Translations under genes and position numbers: made by a program
The notes under the pieces: generated by a model
Seen by the model: the letters and a program-made list of their open reading frames with translations, nothing else
Database searches by the model: none
What the model was told of the DNA's origin: nothing
From: Alphaproteobacteria bacterium
GTDB lineage: Bacteria; Pseudomonadota; Alphaproteobacteria; Bin95
Direction: 5' to 3'
DNA: 64,000 bases
Assembly (NCBI GenBank): GCA_965205265.1
Contig: CBDBGH010000003.1
Span: 1,728,001-1,792,000, forward strand
Shown: piece by piece, positions 582 to 59,953 of the stretch
How the letters are laid out: the number at the start of each line of letters is the position of its first letter
Numbering within the stretch: the first letter of the stretch is position 1

Positions 582-1739
582 CTACGTCATCCCCAGCCGC
601 CCGCTCGCGATGCGGGCGCCTTCGGCCATGCTGCGGAGCTTGGCCCAGACCACGTCTTCCGGCACCCGGCCCATGCCGGCGGAGGTGTCGAAGCCGCAGT
701 CCGTGCCGGCCTGGATGCGCGCCGGATCGCCGACGGCGCGAGCCGCGCGCTCAAGCCTTTCGGCGATGGTTTCCGGGTGCTCGACATAGTTGGTCGTGGT
801 GTCGATCACGCCCGCGACCAGATACTGGTCCGGGGCCAGCGGCGTGCGGCGCAGCTCCTCGACCTCGTGCTGATGGCGGGGATTGGCGAAGGGCAGCACC
901 AGCCCGCCGACATCGGCCTCGAGCAGGATCGGCAGCACGTCGCGAAGCTCGACATCCATGTCGTGCGGCCCTTCGTAGTTCCCCCAGCAGACATGCAGCC
1001 GCACCCGCTCGCGCGGCACATTGGCGAGCGCGCCGTTCAGCGTCTCGACCACAAGCTCCACCCAATCCCGGAAGGCGCGGAGCGGTTCGTCGGCGAACAG
1101 AAAATGGCGCTCCATCGCAAGGTCCGGCGCATCGATCTGCAACAGCCATCCGTTCTCCACAATTGCTTCGTATTCGACCCTGAGCGCCTCCGCGACATCG
1201 GCCAGATAGGCATTCCGGTCGGCATAGTGCCCGCTCTTCATGGCCGAGACCACGATGCCCGGCGAGGCCGCCGTCATGAAGGGCTGCCCGAAGCCGCCTC
1301 CCGCCCTTTCCAGCGCCAGGCGGAAGGTCTCGCACTCGTCTTCGAGCGGCCCCCGGTCCACATAGCGGACGGCGCCGAGGTTCATCGGCGGCTCCATGTT
1401 GGAGACCGCTTCGGCGCGCACGCGCAGGAAGGTCTCGTATTCGCGCACCAGCCCCGGATAGCGGAACACATCCCGGCGGCCGGGGCGCTTCCAGCTTCCG
1501 CCGAAGCCGCTCATGCGGTGCTGGACATAGAGGAAGAAGCCTTCCCGCTGCTGCTCGCCATTGTTACCGACGGTGACGCCCGCCTCGATCTGCCGGGCGA
1601 CAATGGCGTCGGTCGCCTTCCGTCCGGCCGCTGCCAGGGCGTCCGCGTCCACATGGCCGCCTTGCGCGCGGCGCGCATAGAGGCCGGTGAGTTCCAACGG
1701 CCGGGGCAGGCTGCCGGCATGCGTGGTGGGTATGCCCAT
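582..1739 (-). CDS. Cobalamin-independent methionine synthase II (MetE C-terminal-like) family protein
   Basis: N-terminal [22 protein letters not shown], Zn ligands HVCWGNY and GTDCGF; start moved to MGIPTT (ATG at 1739). Confidence 0.85.
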
Positions 1740-1882
1740 GGATTTCCGGCTCCGGTTTCGGCGGATCGGCAAGGCGCCATGCGCATTCTTCCCGAACGCG
1801 GCGGCGCAAGAAAGGTCCCCTGCCCGCCCGGCCGCCATCCCGGCCGGGCTTGCGCGGGGCGCGGCTTGGGCATACCGTTTTG

Positions 1883-1906
1883 CCGCCCGCAACCGGTTGC
1901 GGGCGG
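1883..1906. promoter_or_regulatory. Perfect 24-bp palindrome in the divergent metE-like/msrB intergenic region
   Basis: CCGCCCGCAACCGGTTGCGGGCGG is its own reverse complement. Confidence 0.45.
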
Positions 1907-1966
1907 AATACGAACGGCAGAACTCTCGACAGGCCGGCATCTTCGATGCGGCCGGTGGTGGACCCC

Positions 1967-2386
1967 ATGACCGACATCCTCGACAGAGCGCCTCCCCGAA
2001 CCGAACTCAGCGACGCCGAATGGCGCAGCCGGCTCACGCCCGAGCAGTACAAGGTGACACGCCGGCACGGCACCGAACGCCCCTTCGCCAACGAGTACCA
2101 CGCCACCAAGACGCCCGGCACCTATCGCTGCATCTGTTGCGATATCCCGCTGTTCGAGAGCCACACCAAATTCGACAGCGGCACCGGCTGGCCGTCCTTC
2201 ACAGCGCCCGTCTCGGCCGAAGCCGTGGCGGAGAAGGTGGATCGAAGCTGGTTCATGACCCGCACGGAGGTGCTTTGCGCCGGATGCGACGCACATCTGG
2301 GCCACGTCTTTCCGGACGGGCCGCCGCCGACGGGGCTCCGCTACTGCATGAACTCCGCCTCCCTGCGCCTGGAGCCTGAAGAGTAA
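1967..2386 (+). CDS. msrB: Peptide-methionine (R)-S-oxide reductase
   Basis: [43 protein letters not shown]. Confidence 0.97.
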
Positions 2387-2430
2387 CCGCCTGCCCGACC
2401 CGACGACCGAACCCGAGGAAACGCGACCCC

Positions 2431-2751
2431 ATGCTCTACGAACTGCGCACCTACAACGCCGCGCCCGGCAAGATCGATGCGCTCAATGCGCGCTTCCGGG
2501 ACCACACATGCGGCCTCTTCGCCAAGCACGGCATCGGCGTCGCCGGCTTCTGGATCAACCGCGCGGACCCGAACCAGCTGATCTATATCTGCAGCTTCGA
2601 GGACGCGGCGCAGATGGAGAGCGCCTGGGCGTCCTTCCGCGACGATCCCGACTGGCAGAAGGCAAGGGCCGAGAGCGAGCGCGACGGCTCCCTCGTCAGC
2701 TCCATCGAAAGCGTGGTCATGGACCCGACCGACTACTCCCGGATGGCGTGA
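2431..2751 (+). CDS. NIPSNAP family protein
   Basis: YELRTY...PGK...RF...KHG..GFW...F.D.DW pattern, 106 aa. Confidence 0.9.
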   Translation: MLYELRTYNAAPGKIDALNARFRDHTCGLFAKHGIGVAGFWINRADPNQLIYICSFEDAAQMESAWASFRDDPDWQKARAESERDGSLVSSIESVVMDPTDYSRMA

Positions 2752-2778
2752 ACGCCCGACCGCGGAGACAGCCCGGCA

Positions 2779-4257
2779 ATGGCAGGCGCGGCCAAGGACG
2801 CGGCCGAACATCTGGCGAGCCTTGACGACGGACGCGCCGTCTGGCTGGACGGCGCCCGCGTCGAGAACCCCGCCCGCCATCCCGCCTTCCGCAACGCCGT
2901 GCGCTCCGCCGCCGGGCTTTACGGCTACCAGGCCGATCCCGCCAATCTGGAGGCAATGACCTTCCCTTCCCCGACCGGCGGCCGGCGGGTCAACCGCGCC
3001 TGGCAGATGCCGGCCTCGCTGGAGGAGCTCGTGCGCCGCCGCGAGGCCCTGACCGCCTGGGCCGAATGCCATGCCGGCTTCATGGGCCGGGCGCCGGACC
3101 ATCTGGCGTCCGCGGTCACCGGGCAGATCATGGGGCTTGAGGTGTTCGAGGCGCACGACCCGGCCCGCGCGCGCGCCTTCCTCGACTATTTCGTCCATGC
3201 GCGCGACAACGACCTCTACCTCACCTATGTGATCGTCAACCCGCAGCTGGACCGCTCGAAGAGCACGGGCGAGCAGGGAAGCGACAGCCCGATGCTCCGC
3301 ATTGTGGACGAGGACCCGGAAGGGGTGACGGTGCGCGGCGGCAAGATGCTCGGCACCGCCGCGGTGCTCGCAAACGAGCTGTTCGTGGCCCACCTCCAGC
3401 CGCTGAAGCCGGACGAGGAGGACTACGCGATCAGCTTCGCGGTCCCGATGGCGGCGAAGGGACTCCGGCTGCTGGCGCGCAAATCCTATGAGGGCCGCGC
3501 GCTCTCCACCTTCGACGACCCGCTCGCCTCGCGCTTCGACGAGAATGACGGGCTGGTCTGGTTCGACGATGTGAAGGTCCCGTGGGAGCGGGTCTTCGTC
3601 CATCGCAGCCCCGCCATGTGCGCGCGCCAGTTCCACGCCACGCCCGGCCATATCTACCAGAACTACCAGGCGCAGATCCGCCTCGCGGTGAAATTCCGGT
3701 TCCTCGTCGGCCTCGCGCGCCGCATCTGCGAGACCATCGGCACGGCGAAGATGCCGCCGGTCGCCGAAACCCTCGGAATGCTGGCCGCGCAGGCGACGGC
3801 GGTCGAGACCATGCTCCACGGCATGGAGGCGAAAGGCCGCCAAAGGGGCCGCTATTTCGTGCCGGACGCACATTCCGTCTATGCCGCCCAGGCCTACTGC
3901 CAGGCGCTCTATCCGCGCATGGTCGAGCGCGTGCGCGGCCTGGCGGGTGGCGCGCTCATCATGCTGCCCTCCTCCGAGCGCGACCTCGCCGACCCCGAGC
4001 TTGCCGGCATCCTGCAAAGCGTCCAGCAATCCGCCGACGGCGCGCCGCCGGTCGAGCGCGTGCGGCTGATGAAGCTCGCCTGGGACGCGCTCGGCTCCGA
4101 ATTCGCGGGCCGACAGACGCAATACGAGATGTTCTATGCCGGCGCGCCCTTCGTCACGCGCGGGCACAGCTTCCGCACCTATGACTGGGAGGGGGCCGAA
4201 GCGCTGGTCGCGGCCGTCTCCGATTCCGCTGCCGAAACGAGGTCCGAACGGCCATGA
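2779..4257 (+). CDS. 4-hydroxyphenylacetate 3-hydroxylase (HpaB-like) flavin monooxygenase
   Basis: L.DGR.VW.DG.RV..HPAF, MGRAPDH, NPQ.DRS, SRFDEND, V.VPWERVF, WDALGSEFAGRQTQYEMFYAG. Confidence 0.9.
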   Translation: MAGAAKDAAEHLASLDDGRAVWLDGARVENPARHPAFRNAVRSAAGLYGYQADPANLEAMTFPSPTGGRRVNRAWQMPASLEELVRRREALTAWAECHAGFMGRAPDHLASAVTGQIMGLEVFEAHDPARARAFLDYFVHARDNDLYLTYVIVNPQLDRSKSTGEQGSDSPMLRIVDEDPEGVTVRGGKMLGTAAVLANELFVAHLQPLKPDEEDYAISFAVPMAAKGLRLLARKSYEGRALSTFDDPLASRFDENDGLVWFDDVKVPWERVFVHRSPAMCARQFHATPGHIYQNYQAQIRLAVKFRFLVGLARRICETIGTAKMPPVAETLGMLAAQATAVETMLHGMEAKGRQRGRYFVPDAHSVYAAQAYCQALYPRMVERVRGLAGGALIMLPSSERDLADPELAGILQSVQQSADGAPPVERVRLMKLAWDALGSEFAGRQTQYEMFYAGAPFVTRGHSFRTYDWEGAEALVAAVSDSAAETRSERP

Positions 4258-5381
4258 AATTCAGTTTTTCCGAGGAGCAGACCGAGTTCCGGAACATGCT
4301 CCGCCGGTTCCTCAACGACCGCTCGCCGACGGCCGAAGTGCGCCGGGTCATGGAAACCGAGTCCGGCTACGATGCGGAGGTGTGGCGGGTGATGGCGGAG
4401 GAGCTGGGCGTCGCCGCAATCCATATCCCCGAGGCCTATGGCGGGGCCGGCTTCGGCGTCTCGGAGCTTGCCATCGCCGCCGAGGAAGCGGGCCGCGCGC
4501 TCCTGCCCTCGCCCTTTTTCGGATCGACCGTCATGGCCGCGACCGCCATTGCCGAGGCCGGGACCGACGCCCAGAAGCAGGCCCTCCTGCCCGGCATCGC
4601 CAGCGGCGCGACGATTGCCGCGCTCGCCGCCGCCGAACCCGGAACCGGCTGGAACGCCGACGCCTTCACGGCGGCCGCGCGCGCCGACAACGGCTCCTGG
4701 CGGCTTACCGGGCGCAAGAGCTATGTGCTGGACGGCATGGCCGCGGACCTTGTCGTGGCGGCGGCGCGGCTGCCGGAAGGCGGGCTCGGCCTGTTCAGCC
4801 TGCCGGCGGAGAGCGAGGGGCTTGCGCGCCGGCCGCTGCAATCCATGGACCCGACGCGCCGGCTCGCGCAGATGGACTTCGACGACGCCCCGGCGGAATT
4901 GCTCGGCGGGCCGGAGGCCGGCGGGCCCGCCTGGGCGCGGACGCTCGACATCGCCGCCGTCTGCCTCGCCGGCGAGATGGTCGGCGGCGCGGAGCGGCTG
5001 CGCGAGGACGCGCTCGAATATGTCTCCATGCGGATGCAGTTCGGCCGCTCCATCGCCTCCTTCCAGGTCACCAAGCACAAGGCGGCGGACATGTTGCTGG
5101 AGGTCGAGCTCGCCAAGGCCGCCGCCTACTATGCCGCCGCCGCGGCCGACGATGATGACGAGGTGGACCAGCCGCTTGCCGCGCTCGCCTCGCTCGCCAA
5201 GGCCGCCGCCTCCGACACCTACATGCAGACCGCCATCCACGCCGTGCAAATGCATGGCGGCATCGGCTTCACCCACGACAACGACACACAGCTCTGGTTC
5301 AAGCGCGCAAAGGCGAGCGAGGTCTTCCTCGGCAGCGCCGCCGACCACCGCGAACGCATGCTGCAGCACTGGAACGCCTGA
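4254..5381 (+). CDS. Acyl-CoA dehydrogenase family protein (short, beta-type subunit)
   Basis: FSEEQ, IPEAYGGAG, R.QFGR.IASFQ..KH, QMHGGIGFT; overlaps the upstream stop (ATGA). Confidence 0.9.
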   Translation: MKFSFSEEQTEFRNMLRRFLNDRSPTAEVRRVMETESGYDAEVWRVMAEELGVAAIHIPEAYGGAGFGVSELAIAAEEAGRALLPSPFFGSTVMAATAIAEAGTDAQKQALLPGIASGATIAALAAAEPGTGWNADAFTAAARADNGSWRLTGRKSYVLDGMAADLVVAAARLPEGGLGLFSLPAESEGLARRPLQSMDPTRRLAQMDFDDAPAELLGGPEAGGPAWARTLDIAAVCLAGEMVGGAERLREDALEYVSMRMQFGRSIASFQVTKHKAADMLLEVELAKAAAYYAAAAADDDDEVDQPLAALASLAKAAASDTYMQTAIHAVQMHGGIGFTHDNDTQLWFKRAKASEVFLGSAADHRERMLQHWNA

Positions 5382-50859: not shown

Positions 50860-51498
50860 TCAGATGTCGGACGGGAAACGGCGGTGGATTTCGGCCACCT
50901 GCTCCGGAGTCAACGGCCGGGTCTTCATGCCCTGCAGGGCGAGGAACAATTTGGCCGTCTCCTCCAGCTCCTCCGTGGCATAGACGGCGTCGGCTAGGGA
51001 CCTGCCCGCCACCACAGGCCCGTGATTGGCCAGCAGCATGGCGTGATGGTCGGAGGCCATCTCGCGCACCGCCCTGGCAAGGTCGATATCGCCCGGCGGA
51101 AAATAGGGAATGAGCGGCAGCGTGCCCACGCGCATGACGTAATAGGCCGTCAGAGGCGGCAGCACATCCGCCTCGTCGATCTCCGCCAGGCAGCTCACCG
51201 CGACCGAATGCGTCGAATGCAGATGGACGACCGCCCCCGCCTTTGGCCGGCGCTCATACACGGCGATATGCAGGAAGGCTTCCTTAGTCGGCGCGTCGCC
51301 CGAGACATGGGTCCCGGCGGCGTCCAGCCGGGAAATCCGCGCCGGGTCCAGATCGCCCATGCTCGAGCCGGTCGGCGTCATCAGCCAACCGTCGTCCAGC
51401 CGGACGCTGATATTCCCCGTCGAGCCGAAGGTCAGGCCCCGGTCGAACAGCGACTTGGCCATGCCCGCGATCCGGTCTCGCAGCTTTGCCTCGCTCAC
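50860..51498 (-). CDS. otnC: 3-oxo-tetronate 4-phosphate decarboxylase (class II aldolase family)
   Basis: SLFDRGLT.GSTGNIS, PTKE..LH, VVHLHSTH, LANHGPV, EELEETA; coupled to otnK. Confidence 0.88.
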   Translation of the reverse strand: MSEAKLRDRIAGMAKSLFDRGLTFGSTGNISVRLDDGWLMTPTGSSMGDLDPARISRLDAAGTHVSGDAPTKEAFLHIAVYERRPKAGAVVHLHSTHSVAVSCLAEIDEADVLPPLTAYYVMRVGTLPLIPYFPPGDIDLARAVREMASDHHAMLLANHGPVVAGRSLADAVYATEELEETAKLFLALQGMKTRPLTPEQVAEIHRRFPSDI

Positions 51499-52604
51499 GG
51501 CAGCATCCCGAAGGCGTCGGCGAAAAACGTCTCCGCGCCGAAGTTCCCGGATTTGAGCGCAAGCGCAAGGGGCCTGCCGCCGACGGCCTCCGTCCACGGA
51601 ACGCCGGGCGCGATTTCGGGGCCGATGCGCAAGGCGGCCGCCCCAAGGGCCGAGACGACGGCGCCCGATGTTTCCCCCCCGGCGACGACAATGCGCGAGA
51701 AGCCGTTATCGGCAAGTGCACCGGCAATCCTCTCGAAGGCGGATTCGAACATGCGCCCTGCCCCTTCGACACCGTAGCGGGCCTGCACCGCCGAGACTTC
51801 CTCCGGCCCGGCGGACGCATAGACCAGTACCGGCTTGCCGGTCGGGCGGGTGAGCGCCCAGGCTATGGCGTCCTCAACCTCACCCGGCCCTGCGGCCAGC
51901 CCGTCGGGATCGATCTTGCGGGCGGGCCAGAGTCCCTCGACAGCCGCGATCTGCGCCCTGGTGGCGGCCGAGCAACTACCCGCCAGCACGACTTCCCGGC
52001 CCGCCGCCTCCGGCAGGACCGGCGCGGACCCGGCCGAAAGCAGGCCCGACCTGCGGAAATTCTCCGGCAGGCCCATGCCGATCCCCGAGCCTCCCGTGAC
52101 CAGCCTGTGGTCCGCCGCCGCCTCACCGACCCGGCGCAAATCGGCGTCCGCAACGGCATCGACGACCCCGTATCGCACACCGTCGGCCTTCAGCGCCGCG
52201 ATGCGCGATCGGATTGCGACGACGCCCGCGCTCACATCCTGCAGCGGCACCAGCCCCACCCGGCCCTGCGACTGCGCCGCCATCAGCCGGATCAGGCTGG
52301 AATCCCGCATCGGCGTCAGCGGGTGGTCCTTCATCGGCGACTCGGAAAGCAGCATGTCGCCGACATAGAGATAGCCCCGGTAGATCGTGCGCCCGTTGGT
52401 CGGAAAGGCGGGGCAGACCAGCGCGAAGTCCGCGTCGAGCGCATCCGCCAGCGCATCGGCGACGGGGCCGATATTGCCCTTCTCGGTGGAATCGAAGGTG
52501 GAGCAGTATTTGAAGACGATCTGCCGGGCGCCCGCCTCCCGCAGCCACCGGAGCGCCTCCAGCGAGCTCTCCACAGCTTCGTCCACCGGCGCGGTTCGCG
52601 ACTT

Positions 52605-52677
52605 GAGCGCCACCACGACCGCCTCCGCATCGCCGATATCCGCGCCCGTGCCCGGCACGCCGACGGTCTGCACCGTC
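52605..52677 (+). repeat. 73-bp target duplication of IS1634 copy 1 (left copy)
   Basis: GAGCGCCACC...TGCACCGTC is repeated at 54592-54664. Confidence 0.95.
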
Positions 52678-54591
52678 CTGACTTCGACGGTTGGGCTGAC
52701 TTCTGACCGATCTCGCGTCTGGAGTTTTCAGTAAAGCCAATGAGTTGGCAGTTGCGGTGCGGTCAAGCTGCGTTGTAGTGCCTAGTAAATCTTTGAGACT
52801 GTCAATGCCTCCGCCACGCGCTACACTCCCCCCATGTTCGTGCGCATCAAGACCTCCCCCAACAGCCCGCGACGCTCGGTCCAGATCGTCGAGGCCGTGC
52901 GCGACGGCGGCAAGGTCCGACAGCGCATCGTCCGCCATGTCGGCGTGGCCATGGACGAGGACGAGCTCGAGCGCCTGAGGCAGCTCGGCGAGTACGTCAA
53001 GGCGAAGCTGGAGGACGAGCGTCAGCCGGCATTGTTTGCGCCCGAGAAGATCGCTGAGCAGGCGATCCGTGTCGGCCGCCGGGGGGACGGCAAGGAGGAA
53101 CTCCCGGTCGACCTCAAGCAGCTTGAAGAGGAGCAGCGCCTGATCACAGGCATCCACGAGGTCTATGGCGAGATCTACCGGCTGCTGGGCCTCGACGCGC
53201 TGCTGCCGCGCTCGCGCTACCGGGCCTCCCATGACGCGCTGTTCCATGTGGTGATGGCGCGGGTAGCCAACCCCGACAGCAAGCGGGGCAGCGTGCGCCG
53301 GCTCGAGGAGGACTTCGGCGTGAGTCTTCCGCTCGAGAAGGTCTACCGGATGATGGATCAGCTCGACGCGACGGTGATCGAGCGACTGCGCACGCGCGTC
53401 GGCGAGGCGAGCCGGTCGCTGCTGCCGGAGCCGGTCGCGATCCTCTTCTTCGATTGCACCACGCTCTACTTCGAGACGGCCGCCGAGGACGAGCTTCGCC
53501 AGCACGGCTTCAGCAAGGACGGCAAACACAAGGACTCGCAGGTTCTGCTGGCGCTGATGGTGACGCGCGAAGGGCTGCCGATCAGCTACGAGGTCTTCCC
53601 CGGCGCCACCTACGAGGGACACAGCATGGTCCCGGTCCTGCAGGACATGCAGCGCCGCCACCAGGTGGAGCGCACGGTATGCGTGGCCGACCGGGGCATG
53701 CTGAGCGCCGACAACCTCGACGCCATGGACGCCATCGGCGGCGAGTATGTCGTCGGCGCGCGGCTGCGCAAGCTGCCGCTCGCGCTGCTGGGGCAGGTTC
53801 TCGACCCCGGGACCTATGCCCCGCTGGAGGGCTCACAGGACCGCCGGGTCGGCGAGTGGGAGTACAAGGGCCGTCGCCTGATCGTCGTCTTCTGCCCCCA
53901 GCGCGCACGCAAGGACGCGCACGAGCGCCGCCATCAGGTGGAACGCCTGCTCGACAGGCTGGCCCGCAGCGACAATCCCAGGGAACTGCTCTCCAATCAC
54001 GGGGCGAAGCGCTTCATCGCCGTCGAGGGCGACGCACGGCTCACGGTGAACCCGGAGAAGATCGCCGAGGCCGCACGATGGGACGGGCTCACCGGCGTCA
54101 TCACCAATCTGCGCGACGCGCGCGTCACCGAAGTGATGGCTCACTACCAGGGGCTCTGGCAGGTCGAGGAGAGCTTCCGGATCACCAAACACGACCTGAA
54201 GATACGTCCCATCTGGCACTGGAACCCGGACCGGATCCGCGCTCACATCGCCATCGCCTTCCTGGCCTTCGCCTGCGTTCGACACCTTGCGTACCGCGTC
54301 GCCATCCAGAAGCGGCGGATGTCCCCGGAGGTCATCCGCTCCGCCCTCGTCCACCGCCAGTGCTCCCTGCTGCGCTGTCGGCAATCGGGCAACCGCTACG
54401 TCATCCCCTCGAAGCCGACACCGGCGGCGGAGCAGATTTACGCAACCATGGGGCTGCCCCTGACGATCACCCCGTATCAACTCGCCTGACCGTCGACGAA
54501 GCACGGCTCGAAGAAATGCCGGATGTAGTGCCTAGCCGAAATGAGAACCAGGCAATATCAACTACTTATGCGAATCAACCGTCGAAGTCAG
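52678..54591 (+). mobile_element. IS1634 family element, copy 1 (1914 bp)
   Basis: 16-bp TIRs CTGACTTCGACGGTTG / CAACCGTCGAAGTCAG. Confidence 0.95.
52834..54489 (+). CDS. IS1634 family transposase
   Basis: FFDCTTLYFE, GFSKDGK...Q, VADRGM, WQVEESFR..K..L..RPI.H...RIRAH. Confidence 0.95.
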   Translation: MFVRIKTSPNSPRRSVQIVEAVRDGGKVRQRIVRHVGVAMDEDELERLRQLGEYVKAKLEDERQPALFAPEKIAEQAIRVGRRGDGKEELPVDLKQLEEEQRLITGIHEVYGEIYRLLGLDALLPRSRYRASHDALFHVVMARVANPDSKRGSVRRLEEDFGVSLPLEKVYRMMDQLDATVIERLRTRVGEASRSLLPEPVAILFFDCTTLYFETAAEDELRQHGFSKDGKHKDSQVLLALMVTREGLPISYEVFPGATYEGHSMVPVLQDMQRRHQVERTVCVADRGMLSADNLDAMDAIGGEYVVGARLRKLPLALLGQVLDPGTYAPLEGSQDRRVGEWEYKGRRLIVVFCPQRARKDAHERRHQVERLLDRLARSDNPRELLSNHGAKRFIAVEGDARLTVNPEKIAEAARWDGLTGVITNLRDARVTEVMAHYQGLWQVEESFRITKHDLKIRPIWHWNPDRIRAHIAIAFLAFACVRHLAYRVAIQKRRMSPEVIRSALVHRQCSLLRCRQSGNRYVIPSKPTPAAEQIYATMGLPLTITPYQLA

Positions 54592-54664
54592 GAGCGCCAC
54601 CACGACCGCCTCCGCATCGCCGATATCCGCGCCCGTGCCCGGCACGCCGACGGTCTGCACCGTC
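54592..54664 (+). repeat. 73-bp target duplication of IS1634 copy 1 (right copy)
   Basis: Matches 52605-52677. Confidence 0.95.
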
Positions 54665-54789
54665 TTCACGCCCTCCCCGACCCAGGTGCCGGCAAGGTCC
54701 GTCGCCCCGGTGAAATCGTCGGCAATCGCGCCCAGCACGATACTCATGCAACGGCCTCCGTCCGGTATCGCCCAGGAAGCGCGCCGCCG

Positions 54790-55326
54790 TCAGTGCGAAT
54801 AGCCCCTGAGCCGATGGTAGCTCTCGACCTGCTCCGGCGTGAGCTCGCGAGCGGCCTCGATATGCGCAAGCAGGTGGATCGCCCTGAGCTCGCCCTGCAT
54901 GACCCCGAGATGCCCGGTCGCCTGCGTCACGTTTGCGGCCGTCGGCCCGCCCGAAGCGAACAGGCCCGCGAGGTGACGTTCCGCCGCCAGGATGGTCTCG
55001 CCCTTCGCGACCGCCTGCGCCTTCATCTTCTCGTAAATCGCCTCGATGCGGCGGAGCTGCCTGCCGGCAAGGCCGAGTTCCGCCTTGAGTTCGAGAAGGT
55101 GCCTCGGCCCCGGGAAGCGGTTGAGTTCCGCCGCCCGCGCAAGGCCCATGCCGTCGCCTTCCCGCAGCTCACGAACCTCCTCGGCCGTCAGGCTCGGGAT
55201 TTCCGCGCTTTGCCCGTGCACATAGGGTGAGGCACCGTGCGAATGCTGCGCCGACGCCGACGCTGAAACCAGGGCGATGACGCAGACCGGGGCAAGAGAT
55301 CTGAGCAGGCGGGTCGCAGTCTTCAT
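54790..55326 (-). CDS. Secreted Spy/CpxP-like (heavy-metal sensor-like) protein
   Basis: Signal peptide, SPY....I.SL, G.G.GLA.AAELN..PGP.H.LEL, LT.EQ...Y..LRGY; SD GGAGG. Confidence 0.8.
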   Translation of the reverse strand: MKTATRLLRSLAPVCVIALVSASASAQHSHGASPYVHGQSAEIPSLTAEEVRELREGDGMGLARAAELNRFPGPRHLLELKAELGLAGRQLRRIEAIYEKMKAQAVAKGETILAAERHLAGLFASGGPTAANVTQATGHLGVMQGELRAIHLLAHIEAARELTPEQVESYHRLRGYSH

Positions 55327-55500
55327 CGGTTCCTCCGAATCCCGTGGCGGTTCGATTGACCGCGACTATGCCCGCCCCGGTGTCCCGGCGGCAACAGAGC
55401 GTCAGCCCCGCATCGCCGCGCCATTGGGGTCGAAGAGCGGATGGCTCTGGAGGCGGGCGGGGCGGCGGTCGCCGAGAATTTCGATTTCCCAGCCCTCCTC
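55296..55500 (+). repeat. 205-bp target duplication of IS1634 copy 2 (left copy)
   Basis: GAGATCTGAG...GCCCTCCTC is repeated at 57415-57619. Confidence 0.95.
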
Positions 55501-57414
55501 CTGACTTCGACGGTTGATTCGCATAAGTAGTTGATATTGCCTGGTTCTCATTTCGGCTAGGCACTACATCCGGCATTTCTTCGAGCCGTGCTTCGTCGAC
55601 GGTCAGGCGAGTTGATACGGGGTGATCGTCAGGGGCAGCCCCATGGTTGCGTAAATCTGCTCCGCCGCCGGTGTCGGCTTCGAGGGGATGACGTAGCGGT
55701 TGCCCGATTGCCGACAGCGCAGCAGGGAGCACTGGCGGTGGACGAGGGCGGAGCGGATGACCTCCGGGGACATCCGCCGCTTCTGGATGGCGACGCGGTA
55801 CGCAAGGTGTCGAACGCAGGCGAAGGCCAGGAAGGCGATGGCGATGTGAGCGCGGATCCGGTCCGGGTTCCAGTGCCAGATGGGACGTATCTTCAGGTCG
55901 TGTTTGGTGATCCGGAAGCTCTCCTCGACCTGCCAGAGCCCCTGGTAGTGAGCCATCACTTCGGTGACGCGCGCGTCGCGCAGATTGGTGATGACGCCGG
56001 TGAGCCCGTCCCATCGTGCGGCCTCGGCGATCTTCTCCGGGTTCACCGTGAGCCGTGCGTCGCCCTCGACGGCGATGAAGCGCTTCGCCCCGTGATTGGA
56101 GAGCAGTTCCCTGGGATTGTCGCTGCGGGCCAGCCTGTCGAGCAGGCGTTCCACCTGATGGCGGCGCTCGTGCGCGTCCTTGCGTGCGCGCTGGGGGCAG
56201 AAGACGACGATCAGGCGACGGCCCTTGTACTCCCACTCGCCGACCCGGCGGTCCTGTGAGCCCTCCAGCGGGGCATAGGTCCCGGGGTCGAGAACCTGCC
56301 CCAGCAGCGCGAGCGGCAGCTTGCGCAGCCGCGCGCCGACGACATACTCGCCGCCGATGGCGTCCATGGCGTCGAGGTTGTCGGCGCTCAGCATGCCCCG
56401 GTCGGCCACGCATACCGTGCGCTCCACCTGGTGGCGGCGCTGCATGTCCTGCAGGACCGGGACCATGCTGTGTCCCTCGTAGGTGGCGCCGGGGAAGACC
56501 TCGTAGCTGATCGGCAGCCCTTCGCGCGTCACCATCAGCGCCAGCAGAACCTGCGAGTCCTTGTGTTTGCCGTCCTTGCTGAAGCCGTGCTGGCGAAGCT
56601 CGTCCTCGGCGGCCGTCTCGAAGTAGAGCGTGGTGCAATCGAAGAAGAGGATCGCGACCGGCTCCGGCAGCAGCGACCGGCTCGCCTCGCCGACGCGCGT
56701 GCGCAGTCGCTCGATCACCGTCGCGTCGAGCTGATCCATCATCCGGTAGACCTTCTCGAGCGGAAGACTCACGCCGAAGTCCTCCTCGAGCCGGCGCACG
56801 CTGCCCCGCTTGCTGTCGGGGTTGGCTACCCGCGCCATCACCACATGGAACAGCGCGTCATGGGAGGCCCGGTAGCGCGAGCGCGGCAGCAGCGCGTCGA
56901 GGCCCAGCAGCCGGTAGATCTCGCCATAGACCTCGTGGATGCCTGTGATCAGGCGCTGCTCCTCTTCAAGCTGCTTGAGGTCGACCGGGAGTTCCTCCTT
57001 GCCGTCCCCCCGGCGGCCGACACGGATCGCCTGCTCAGCGATCTTCTCGGGCGCAAACAATGCCGGCTGACGCTCGTCCTCCAGCTTCGCCTTGACGTAC
57101 TCGCCGAGCTGCCTCAGGCGCTCGAGCTCGTCCTCGTCCATGGCCACGCCGACATGGCGGACGATGCGCTGTCGGACCTTGCCGCCGTCGCGCACGGCCT
57201 CGACGATCTGGACCGAGCGTCGCGGGCTGTTGGGGGAGGTCTTGATGCGCACGAACATGGGGGGAGTGTAGCGCGTGGCGGAGGCATTGACAGTCTCAAA
57301 GATTTACTAGGCACTACAACGCAGCTTGACCGCACCGCAACTGCCAACTCATTGGCTTTACTGAAAACTCCAGACGCGAGATCGGTCAGAAGTCAGCCCA
57401 ACCGTCGAAGTCAG
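55501..57414 (-). mobile_element. IS1634 family element, copy 2 (1914 bp, inverted relative to copy 1)
   Basis: Same TIRs and length; identical 551-aa transposase translation. Confidence 0.95.
55603..57258 (-). CDS. IS1634 family transposase
   Basis: Translation identical to 52834-54489. Confidence 0.95.
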   Translation of the reverse strand: MFVRIKTSPNSPRRSVQIVEAVRDGGKVRQRIVRHVGVAMDEDELERLRQLGEYVKAKLEDERQPALFAPEKIAEQAIRVGRRGDGKEELPVDLKQLEEEQRLITGIHEVYGEIYRLLGLDALLPRSRYRASHDALFHVVMARVANPDSKRGSVRRLEEDFGVSLPLEKVYRMMDQLDATVIERLRTRVGEASRSLLPEPVAILFFDCTTLYFETAAEDELRQHGFSKDGKHKDSQVLLALMVTREGLPISYEVFPGATYEGHSMVPVLQDMQRRHQVERTVCVADRGMLSADNLDAMDAIGGEYVVGARLRKLPLALLGQVLDPGTYAPLEGSQDRRVGEWEYKGRRLIVVFCPQRARKDAHERRHQVERLLDRLARSDNPRELLSNHGAKRFIAVEGDARLTVNPEKIAEAARWDGLTGVITNLRDARVTEVMAHYQGLWQVEESFRITKHDLKIRPIWHWNPDRIRAHIAIAFLAFACVRHLAYRVAIQKRRMSPEVIRSALVHRQCSLLRCRQSGNRYVIPSKPTPAAEQIYATMGLPLTITPYQLA

Positions 57415-57619
57415 GAGATCTGAGCAGGCGGGTCGCAGTCTTCATCGGTTCCTCCGAATCCCGTGGCGGTTCGATTGACCGCGACTATGCCCGCCCCGGT
57501 GTCCCGGCGGCAACAGAGCGTCAGCCCCGCATCGCCGCGCCATTGGGGTCGAAGAGCGGATGGCTCTGGAGGCGGGCGGGGCGGCGGTCGCCGAGAATTT
57601 CGATTTCCCAGCCCTCCTC
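57415..57619 (+). repeat. 205-bp target duplication of IS1634 copy 2 (right copy)
   Basis: Matches 55296-55500. Confidence 0.95.
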
Positions 57620-59953
57620 TTCGGCCGCCAGCGCCTTAGGCACATAGCCGCAGGCGACGGAGACGCCGGACCAGTGGGCGTAACCGCCGGAGGTAATCGC
57701 GCCGACCACCTCGCCGCCGCGCCAGACCGGCTCGTCGCCCATGGCGTCGGCATCGTCGGCGTCCATCGAGAAGAAGCAGAGCCGGACATCGCCGCCGGTA
57801 TCGCGCTCCTGCAATGCCGCCTCCTTGCCGATGAAGTCCGCAGCCTTGCCGTAGGCCACGAAGCGGTCGAGCCGCGCTTCCACCGGGCCGTAGAGCGGGC
57901 GGTATTCCCGCGCCCATGAGGCGTAATGCTTCTCGACCCGGAGCCCGTTCAGCGCCCGGCTGCCGAAGGGCCGGATGCCGTGCACCGCGCCTGCCTCCAG
58001 CAGCAGGGCGAGCAGCAGGCGGTGGTAGTCGGGCGCAACCCAGATCTCATAGCCGAGGCCGCCCGTATAGCTGACCCGGCCGACAAGCGCCGGCGCGGCG
58101 CCGAGCGTCATGCGGCGCACATCCATGAAACGGAACGCCTCGGCGGAGACATCCTCATCCTCGCCGACAAGCGCCGCCAGCACGTCGCGCGCCTTCGGCC
58201 CGGCTATCGTGAGCCCGTTCAGTCCGGACCCCAGCGGCGCGACCGACACCGACCCGTCCGCCGGCAGATGCCGGGTGAACCACCGCATGTGGTACTCCTC
58301 GGCAGGGCCGGAGCCGACCAGCCGCCAGAGCCCGCCGCCGAGATTGGCGAGCGTGAAGTCGCCGATGATCTTGCCGCCCTCGTTCAGCATTGGCGCCAGG
58401 CCCATGCGCCCCTCGCGCGGCAGCCGGCTTGCCAGTATCCGGTCGAGCCAGGCTTCCGCGCCCGGACCCATCGCATCGTAGGCGGCGAAGCCGCTGGTCT
58501 CCGCAACGCCGACGCCCTCCCGCACGGCCCGGCACTCCGCGCCCACATGCTCGAAGTCCGTGGAGCGGCGGAAGGAGAGCCTGTCCTCGACGCCGGGCGG
58601 AGCGAACCAGAGCGGCTGCTCCAGACCCCAGGCGTCGCCGAACACCGCACCCATCGCCGCCATCCGGTCGTGGACCGGCGTGGTGCGGAGCGGGCGCGCG
58701 GCGGGCAGTTCCTCGTTCGGGAAGCGGATCGAGAAGCGCCGGGAATAGTTCTCGCGGACCTTGGCGTCGGTATAGGCGGGCGTCGCCCAGGCGCCGTAGC
58801 GGGCGACGTCCATGGCGTGAATGTCGAAACCGGGGTCGCCGTCCACGATCCAGTTGGCGAGCGCGAGGCCGACGCCGCCGCCCTGGCTGAAGCCCGCCAT
58901 GACCGCACAGGCGCACCAGAAGCCCGGCAGGCCGCGCACCGGCCCGACAAGCGGATTGCCGTCCGGCGCAAAGCTGAACGGACCGTTGATGACCCGCTTG
59001 ATGCCGGCCTCCTGAAAGGCCGGGAAATGCTCGAACCCGACTTCCAGCGAGGGCGCGATGCGGTCGAGGTCCGGCTGGAGCAGCTCGTGGCCGAAATCCC
59101 AGGGCGTGTCCACGGGAGACCAGGGCTTGCAGGCCTTCTCATAGGTGCCCATGAGCATGCCGCGGCCTTCCTGGCGCAGATAGATTTCGCCCTCGAAATC
59201 CACGACATGCAGCATCTCGCCGCCCGTCTCGCGGTTGTATGCCTCCACCTCCGGCATGTCGTCGGTGATGAGATACATATGCTCCATGGCGAGGATCGGC
59301 AGTTCGAGGCCGACCATGCGCCCGACCTCGCGCGCCCAAAGCCCGCCGGCATTGACGACATGCGCCGCTCGGATTTCCCCCTTGTCCGTCGTCACCAGCC
59401 ACTCGCCGCCCGGAAGCGGCTCAAGCGCCTCGACCTTGGTGAAGCGGTAAATCTCGGCTCCCTGCTTGCGGGCCGCTGCGGCATAGGCATGGGTCGTGCC
59501 GGACGGGTCCACATGGCCGTCATCGGCGTTCCAGAGCGCCCCCACGAAATGCCGGGGGTCGAGCAGCGGCATGTGCCTGTGCGCCTCCTCGGCGGAGACG
59601 ATCTCGGTATCGAGCCCCAGATAGCGCCCGCGCGCATGGATCAGCTTCAGCCATTCCATGCGATCCGGCGTGCCGGCCAGCAGGTAGCCGCCCGTCACAT
59701 GCAGCCCCGCCGACTGGCCCGATGCGGTCTCGATCTCCGGGTAGAGGTCGATGGTGTATTTCTGGAGCTTCGCGATATGCGGGTCGCCGTTGATGGTGTG
59801 CATGCCGCCGGCGGCGTGCCAGCTCGATCCCGAAGTGAGCTCGTCGCGCTCGACCAGCACGACATCCTTCCAGCCGCGCTTCGTGAGGTGGTAGAGCACC
59901 GAAGCGCCGATCACCCCGCCGCCGATAACGACGACTTCGGTATGGGTTTTCAC
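57521..59953 (-). CDS. GcvT family FAD-dependent oxidoreductase (dimethylglycine dehydrogenase-like)
   Basis: GGGV.G, LTSGSSWHAAG, DG.VDP, NGP..F.PDGNP, R.SYTG.LGYE, LR.EK, TSGGY. Confidence 0.92.
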   Translation of the reverse strand: MKTHTEVVVIGGGVIGASVLYHLTKRGWKDVVLVERDELTSGSSWHAAGGMHTINGDPHIAKLQKYTIDLYPEIETASGQSAGLHVTGGYLLAGTPDRMEWLKLIHARGRYLGLDTEIVSAEEAHRHMPLLDPRHFVGALWNADDGHVDPSGTTHAYAAAARKQGAEIYRFTKVEALEPLPGGEWLVTTDKGEIRAAHVVNAGGLWAREVGRMVGLELPILAMEHMYLITDDMPEVEAYNRETGGEMLHVVDFEGEIYLRQEGRGMLMGTYEKACKPWSPVDTPWDFGHELLQPDLDRIAPSLEVGFEHFPAFQEAGIKRVINGPFSFAPDGNPLVGPVRGLPGFWCACAVMAGFSQGGGVGLALANWIVDGDPGFDIHAMDVARYGAWATPAYTDAKVRENYSRRFSIRFPNEELPAARPLRTTPVHDRMAAMGAVFGDAWGLEQPLWFAPPGVEDRLSFRRSTDFEHVGAECRAVREGVGVAETSGFAAYDAMGPGAEAWLDRILASRLPREGRMGLAPMLNEGGKIIGDFTLANLGGGLWRLVGSGPAEEYHMRWFTRHLPADGSVSVAPLGSGLNGLTIAGPKARDVLAALVGEDEDVSAEAFRFMDVRRMTLGAAPALVGRVSYTGGLGYEIWVAPDYHRLLLALLLEAGAVHGIRPFGSRALNGLRVEKHYASWAREYRPLYGPVEARLDRFVAYGKAADFIGKEAALQERDTGGDVRLCFFSMDADDADAMGDEPVWRGGEVVGAITSGGYAHWSGVSVACGYVPKALAAEEEGWEIEILGDRRPARLQSHPLFDPNGAAMRG

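Follow-up and report, generated by a model that had tools for sequence, protein, structure and literature searches.

The IS1634 family of insertion sequences (ISs) was split from the IS4 family and, according to the family description in PMC2266710, comprises elements of 1500-2000 bp with the terminal consensus C-----YT, an incomplete YREK signature from which the arginine is usually absent, and AT-rich target duplications that are usually 5-6 bp long. The same description sets IS1549 and IS1634 apart as atypical members, with direct repeats (DRs) of 8-514 bp for both together, and it noted in 2008 that a mechanistic model for them was still lacking (PMC2266710). IS1634 is listed with 60-65 copies in Mycoplasma mycoides PG1 in PMC2266710 and PMC3053259, while a 6-bp DR is given for an observed transposition of ISGka5, an IS1634-family element of Geobacillus, in the account of PMC8024623. 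Long and variable target duplications, single-copy in the empty allele, are also described for restriction-modification units by Furuta, Abe and Kobayashi (2010; PMC2853133). Within DDE transposition, long and variable target duplications have stood as an exception without an explanation from the time that IS1549 and IS1634 were reported, and the literature searched, with ISfinder and TnPedia outside its scope, yielded no later mechanistic account and no report of the proteobacterial clade described below. The present analysis concerns a 64,000-nt stretch of an alphaproteobacterial genome (assembly GCA_965205265.1, contig CBDBGH010000003.1, positions 1,728,001 to 1,792,000; G000:C3:1728001-1792000 in the numbering used here), termed the window, which carries two copies of an IS between long DRs. 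The element is a new, very active member of the IS1634 family that displays the known oddity of long, variable DRs; the phenomenon itself is not new.

A repeat search over window positions 51000-59500 revealed an inverted pair at 52676-54594 and 55498-57416, 1919 nt long, 100% complementary and separated by 903 nt. It is accompanied by a direct repeat of 78 nt at 97% identity (52605-52682 and 54592-54669), with an exact part of 73 nt (52605-52677 = 54592-54664), and by another of 208 nt (55293-55500 and 57412-57619), with an exact part of 205 nt (55296-55500 = 57415-57619). On reading the sequence, the exact repeats of 73 and 205 bp abut the IS tips directly, and the two IS copies are identical (100%) and in opposite orientation; exact repeats of this length at the tips of an IS cannot be chance. 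The initial annotation had described two identical 1914-bp elements between DRs of 73 and 205 bp, an arrangement that stands together with its coordinates, while the sizes require correction. The IS is 1916 bp long, not 1914, because C precedes CTGAC and G follows GTCAG in 55 of the 55 full-length copies in the genome; under the 1914-bp definition, all mismatches between DR copies fall at the first or last position. Its 17-bp terminal inverted repeats (left, IRL; right, IRR) read CCTGACTTCGACGGTTG, and each copy contains one long open reading frame (ORF). The visible repeats of 73 and 205 bp exceed the true ones because the adjoining target bases G and C, which are the preferred target context beside both window duplications, coincide with the IS tips; the duplications proper are 71 bp and 203 bp. 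The features of the pair, in window coordinates, are:

51495-52676, minus strand: C-terminal part (SBD_N and NBD_C) of the gene that copy 1 splits
52606-52676, no strand: left-hand 71-bp repeat of target DNA at IS copy 1; 73 bp (52605-52677) counting the coincident G and C; single-copy in the relative G012 and in empty-site contigs
52677-54592, plus strand: IS copy 1, 1916 bp, with IRL at 52677-52693 and IRR at 54576-54592
52834-54489, plus strand: transposase gene of copy 1, 551 amino acids (aa), DDE, IS1634 family, from NF033559, PF01609 and the translation
54593-54663, no strand: right-hand 71-bp repeat of target DNA at IS copy 1; the X22 contig runs through it from the IS right end
55297-55499, no strand: left-hand 203-bp repeat of target DNA at IS copy 2
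55500-57415, minus strand: IS copy 2, 1916 bp, in the opposite orientation to copy 1
55603-57258, minus strand: transposase gene of copy 2, 551 aa
57416-57618, no strand: right-hand 203-bp repeat of target DNA at IS copy 2

Genome-wide copies were located by BLAST in the 5.70-Mb, three-contig assembly with the 1914-bp element as query. Among 69 matches, 55 are full-length (53 at 100% and two at 99.95% identity), the rest being pieces of interrupted copies. With the 1916-bp limits and a minimum exact DR of 6 bp, 48 of the 55 full copies present an exact DR, each of a different host sequence, with lengths of 6, 8, 11, 14, 33, 38, 46, 49, 49, 51, 64, 67, 67, 71, 82, 82, 90, 91, 92, 93, 107, 112, 116, 134, 138, 143, 146, 161, 165, 170, 185, 198, 200, 200, 201, 203, 205, 287, 288, 326, 338, 454, 455, 466, 528, 567, 568 and 573 bp. 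The 48 values have a median of 136, a mean of 182 and a standard deviation of 162 bp, and they fit an exponential distribution (Kolmogorov-Smirnov p=0.71); 10 are 51 bp or shorter, 20 are 100 bp or shorter and only four are 14 bp or shorter. IS copies that are 99.95-100% identical to one another thus bear widely differing DR lengths. No periodicity near 10-11 bp was found in the 48 lengths by a Rayleigh scan over periods of 5-40 bp (R 0.01 at 10.5 bp), and the best period, 19.2 bp, was equalled by 21% of jittered sets (p about 0.21). IS orientation displays no bias with respect to replichore (11 plus and 8 minus in one, 21 plus and 15 minus in the other; cumulative GC skew places the origin at about 4.4 Mb and the terminus at about 1.5 Mb).

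Seven of the 55 copies lack a DR, and five of these are accounted for by later events. The copies at 4892940-4894855 and 5202993-5204908 (contig C3) are mutually inverted and share 172-173 bp between their left flanks and 101 bp between their right flanks, which indicates a ~310-kb inversion through IS-IS recombination after both long-DR insertions. Flanks are also swapped between two further copies, the left of 2317705 being equal to the right of 4290172 over 76-77 bp, and the 96-bp DR partner of copy 3854289 lies 2.8 kb off, beyond another IS that splits the DR. At C3:4596310-4600230 one copy is nested in another, the inner DR of 91 bp consisting of IS sequence and the outer DR measuring 215 bp. 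Two same-orientation copies located 68 bp apart at C3:2239812-2243709 have overlapping DRs of 46 and 51 bp, a short target region having been hit twice.

The 96 DR edges, aligned in the frame of the unoccupied target, present a common motif. The first duplicated base (+1) is A in 74 of 96 edges, the base just outside the duplication (-1) is G in 63 and C in 26 (89 of 96 together), A or T occupies position -2 in 69 of 96, and position -3 is A in 38 of 96; since the genome is 68.2% GC, these biases are strong departures. Both DR edges display the motif 5'-W-S^A, with A at +1 in 37 of 48 IRL edges and 37 of 48 IRR edges. A difference between IRL and IRR motifs, considered as a sign of a 'first' end, is ruled out, the motifs being the same. 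Each end is thus joined at a site of W-S^A type, with the two sites at variable mutual distance. The DR segments of at least 30 bp (n=44) are AT-richer than length-matched random segments (62.6% versus 68.2% GC, with 0 of 2000 simulations as low) and than segments 0.4-1.2 kb from the DRs (66.6% GC). Their absolute GC skew is also somewhat higher (0.123 versus 0.091, P=0.0025), which is no more than a hint of R-loops.

The state of the locus before insertion is seen in related genomes. Thirty relatives were searched with the 909 bp between the window copies, and the best loci were aligned to the window. G012 (92% identity) has a contiguous locus free of the IS, whose positions 1501-1718 align to the window both from 55500 and from 57412, and whose positions 2347-2419 correspond to 54592-54664 as well as to 52605-52677. 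The same single 73-bp stretch aligns to both window DR copies in the loci L034, L035 and L038. On these alignments, each duplicated stretch is present once in the empty allele, and the repeats are target DNA duplicated at insertion. Logan contigs from four public runs were also aligned to window positions 52000-55450, and contigs from three of the four join 52604 to 54592, leaving out 1987 bases (the IS plus one repeat copy). These empty-site contigs have a depth of 476.5 and no differences in X19, a depth of 2 and no differences in X23, and a depth of 4.2 with 24 differences in 831 bp in X1, which hence represents a relative. In the fourth run, X22, a contig starts at the right end of the IS (54566), crosses the right repeat and reaches 55325. 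Since an unbroken contig through the 73-bp node needs the words of the IS junction to be rare, the X19 contig suggests a site that is mostly unoccupied in that run. Searches of the five nearest same-genus genomes with two 5.9-kb IS-containing loci did not find the IS; these relatives contain only the left flank of the copy at C3:4956424, which has no DR, and nothing of the copy at C3:4988585, which has a 573-bp DR. Between runs, the ratio of IS to flank contig depth varies from ~4 to ~60, which is not readable as copy number, and in X22 the left flank (52000-52579) is uncovered while the right flank is covered; strain-to-strain variation in IS load, or rearrangement, may lie behind these differences in depth and cover. 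Several runs labelled sponge, coral reef or marine metagenome, X1 among them, contain minor fractions of the stretch.

The transposase matches the NCBIfam model of the IS1634 family, NF033559, with 341.3 bits against a cut-off of 100 and over profile positions 1-482 of 483. Its scores with the IS4, IS701, IS1182 and IS1380 models are far under their cut-offs, and Pfam PF01609 (DDE_Tnp_1) is matched with 54 bits. The translation contains YQGLWQVEESFRITK, in which, with the spacing read by eye, Y-x2-L-x3-E-x6-K is recognized, a YREK signature without arginine and with L in place of R. A single ORF is characteristic of the IS1634 family, and the element conforms to the family in length, ends and coding content (1916 bp, ends CCTGACTT, one 551-aa ORF). 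The 5-6 bp AT-rich duplication that is the family norm is not observed, the DRs here extending from 6 to 573 bp with only two of 48 at 8 bp or less; this does not exclude membership, because the family description lists IS1634 and IS1549 as exceptions of precisely this type. Elsewhere in the assembly, two identical partial matches to the IS1634 model on C2, a 43-kb contig (14210-14752 and 42509-43051), score 83 bits, below the cut-off, and belong to a different element.

An internal control is provided by a 2.78-kb element of another family that interrupts five of the IS copies. Its gene products match the models of the IS21-family transposase (198 bits against a cut-off of 160) and of the IstB helper (282 bits against 200). 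The halves of each interrupted copy overlap by just 6-13 bp in BLAST coordinates; host repair is therefore not the source of long duplications for every IS, and the trait is specific to the element. At C3:691602-694389 (1603-4390 of locus L123) this multi-copy IS21-family element encodes IstA of 499 aa and IstB of 279 aa; at 99% identity or more, its 576-bp end recurs at about 26 places, and a second variant, at 89%, recurs at seven. Transposases related to that of the IS1634-family element were found at 77 loci in genome contigs, labelled as Alphaproteobacteria metagenome-assembled genomes (MAGs; 87-99% aa identity), Candidatus Poriferihabitaceae (56-59%), Pseudohongiella (53-59%), Paracoccaceae (59%), Pseudomonadales (50-55%), Chloroflexota (58%) and Gammaproteobacteria (56%). 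Examination covered 75 of the 77, L101 and L104 being omitted as short contigs, and the tip CC[T/C]GACTTCGA is common to every related element whose tips were found. Both tips were located at 70 loci, of which 50 present an exact DR of at least 16 bp (range 16-1318, median 140) and two more present DRs with few mismatches, of 217 and 478 bp. The edge motif recurs in 100 edges of these relatives, position +1 being A in 74, position -1 being G or C in 81 and position -2 being A or T in 74. As these junctions show, the formation of long, variable DRs is inherited throughout a wide clade of proteobacterial elements. Among 72,556 plasmids, mostly of cultured bacteria, the best matches are less than 32% identical, and they include a Cereibacter plasmid element with a 29% identical transposase and a 5-bp DR, GGCAG (one copy, L126). 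On the Cereibacter sphaeroides plasmid CP031754.1 (L125, 2340-5727), two distant IS1634-family copies abut in inverted orientation.

Several proposals of the initial annotation are borne out by these data: membership of the IS1634 family, through the profile match; recent activity, through the identity of 53 of the 55 copies, the absence of flank differences in the X19 empty-site contig and the failure to find the IS in the five nearest genomes; copying of host sequence at each jump, through empty alleles that hold one copy of each stretch; and variable DR length, through the genome-wide tabulation of 48 copies. The alphaproteobacterial affiliation that it proposed has its basis here in the record titles of the MAGs with the closest IS relatives. 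The DRs are not artefacts, the empty allele lacks the duplication, and the other copies do not have short, fixed target-site duplications.

The products are probably explained by staggered joining of the IS ends at widely variable spacing, followed by host synthesis of long, exact repeats. An IS1634-family IS with one DDE transposase gene has recently multiplied to at least 55 intact copies. At every insertion, its two 3' ends would attack different strands of the target, and the resulting 5' stagger would measure anything from 6 to ~570 bp (to 1.3 kb in relatives). Each end would choose its own site by the weak motif 5'-(A)-W-S^A-3', and host DNA synthesis would fill both gaps, copying the stretch between the sites into an exact direct repeat. 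That the two ends attack widely separated sites, as initially annotated, is inferred from the products. In the preferred version of this staggered transfer, the target between the sites would be unwound when the second end attacks, through strand displacement from the first nick or in a pre-existing bubble. An unwound intermediate is preferred because 33-100 bp of stiff duplex should not loop without helical phasing, and because a free loop should yield deletions, same-strand events and duplications at roughly equal rates. The exponential lengths, the 10 DRs of 51 bp or less, the lack of a 10-11 bp periodicity and the lower GC content of the DR segments also speak for such an intermediate. Within the staggered-transfer reading, the unwound or sequential version has about an even chance of being correct. 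In its sequential form, which is put forward tentatively, the target 3'-OH left by the first transfer would prime synthesis that peels the duplex, and the second end would join the moving branch at W-S^A with a constant chance per base. If true, it would explain the strict polarity, the exponential lengths down to 6 bp and the absent helical phasing, and would make the clade (50-93% identical transposases in genomes labelled Alpha- and Gammaproteobacteria) a group of target-primed transposons, with insertions reversible by design through homologous recombination of their long repeats. Capture of a pre-existing bubble is an alternative to the sequential form, and is consistent with the AT-richer and more skewed DR segments.

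Staggered transfer could also proceed by looped capture, in which one synaptic complex holding both IS ends would attack two distant sites on duplex DNA, the DR length being the length of the loop. Transposases usually work as paired-end complexes, and such a complex would fit the presence of the same motif at both edges, where no end looks 'first'. However, stiff duplex loops poorly over the distances of 51 bp or less in 10 of 48 DRs and of 100 bp or less in 20 of 48, yet helical phasing is absent, and a free loop permits deletions and same-strand attacks, yet the polarity of the products is constant, at least 51 of the 55 copies being of the duplication type; looped capture is thus regarded as unlikely. 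A different origin in two steps would start from ordinary insertions, each with a short duplication, at sites separated by a few hundred bp and in the same orientation on sister chromosomes; homologous exchange within the IS would then produce the order segment-IS-segment. The product would look identical, target motif at both edges included, the swapped flanks attest to recombination between IS copies in this genome, and close pairs of copies exist (seven of 54 neighbour spacings are below 8 kb). These spacings do not amount to significant clustering of the kind expected from local hopping (4.1 expected, P=0.11), short duplications would be expected in most copies rather than the four of 48 DRs at 14 bp or less, and two hits within about 200 bp would be needed for nearly every copy and again in every related element, so that a two-step origin appears very improbable. 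That the repeats arose by mis-assembly around a 55-copy repeat is a practically negligible possibility: high-copy identical repeats do assemble poorly, and the bin has a contamination of 7.3%, but 48 different host sequences are exactly duplicated at IS tips, the pattern recurs in independent assemblies of other organisms, the X22 contig spans the IS right end, the right DR and downstream DNA, and the far edge of the DR carries a non-random motif that an assembler cannot know.

Other observations weigh against the staggered-transfer reading or temper it. The left flank (135 bp) of copy C3:3249125 recurs at C3:4043430 without the IS, copy C3:4956424 has no DR partner anywhere, and the flanks to the right of 2317705 and to the left of 4290172 are orphans; these exceptions could be deletion-type events, which a model of strict polarity does not predict. 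No DR is present at 18 of the 70 related loci with both tips. The products have been filtered by selection and recombination, and long DRs should be lost faster, so that the true length distribution may be broader than the one recorded, and the periodicity test, with n=48 values, is of limited power. The low GC content of the DRs may reflect tolerated intergenic sites and not easy melting. The empty-site contigs derive from short-read graphs in which the 73-bp repeat is a shared node, and the joints between identical flanks are supportive, not decisive. Finally, the mechanism is deduced from end products.

The two window copies differ in their effects on neighbouring genes. Copy 1 splits a gene with SBD_N and NBD_C domains, presumably four-carbon acid sugar kinase-like, leaving codons 1-52 at 54592-54747 (minus strand) and the remainder at 51495-52673 (minus strand). 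Copy 2 lies between a 178-aa ORF without a Pfam match (54790-55326, minus strand) and an 810-aa gene with DAO, FAO_M and GCV_T domains (57521-59953, minus strand). The left 203-bp repeat comprises the start of the 178-aa ORF and 173 bp upstream of it, together with a stray duplicate of the final 99 nt of the DAO/GCV_T gene, and the right repeat holds the intact 3' end and stop codon of that gene. Since the 203-bp stretch takes in the 3' end of this gene, the spacer and the opening codons of the 178-aa ORF, both ORFs flanking copy 2 stay whole. Elsewhere, diverged tandem arrays of ~67-bp units (74-83% identity between registers; C3:3251047-3252559, 3254293-3254938, 4047003-4047497 and 4049296-4050138) adjoin copy 3249125 and recur at other loci; they may lie in a large repetitive gene.

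The value of the finding lies in a junction set that is large and clean and that constrains mechanism. It is an unusually clean natural set, with 48 junction pairs from one element at 99.95-100% identity and 50 more from relatives, and it places three constraints on any model: the same W-S^A at both edges, exponential spacing without phasing, and an almost exclusive duplication polarity. The target motif and similar features may already be on record for older elements. A long duplication can leave both neighbouring genes whole, as at copy 2, and repeats of 70-570 bp are substrates for homologous recombination, which would make precise removal of insertions possible. The element had also been proposed as a tractable model; this is doubtful for the native host, which appears uncultured, the close IS relatives retrieved all lying in MAGs and the best match on plasmids of cultured bacteria being under 32% identical. 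A tractable model would have to take the form of a heterologous assay, and standard laboratory hosts might support the activity of a transposase of this clade.

Among described systems, the element most resembles IS1634 of Mycoplasma mycoides subsp. mycoides SC, with which it shares, as far as the published descriptions extend, the family model, long variable DRs and a very high copy number. The hosts differ, a low-GC mollicute in one case and a 68% GC genome in the other, and the two are likened by description only. IS1549 of Mycobacterium smegmatis, after which the family was first named according to the history given in PMC2266710, similarly generates long DRs on insertion; its host is an actinobacterium, and again the likeness is one of description only. 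The ordinary members, represented by the family norm, ISGka5 and the Cereibacter element, belong to the same family but produce short duplications of 5-6 bp. The Cereibacter element nevertheless displays a related terminal motif, its ends being CCCAAGTTCGAC compared with CCTGACTTCGAC here. Restriction-modification units, which resemble the element in their target duplications, have neither transposase nor inverted repeats, in contrast with the precise, conserved tips and DDE transposase observed here.

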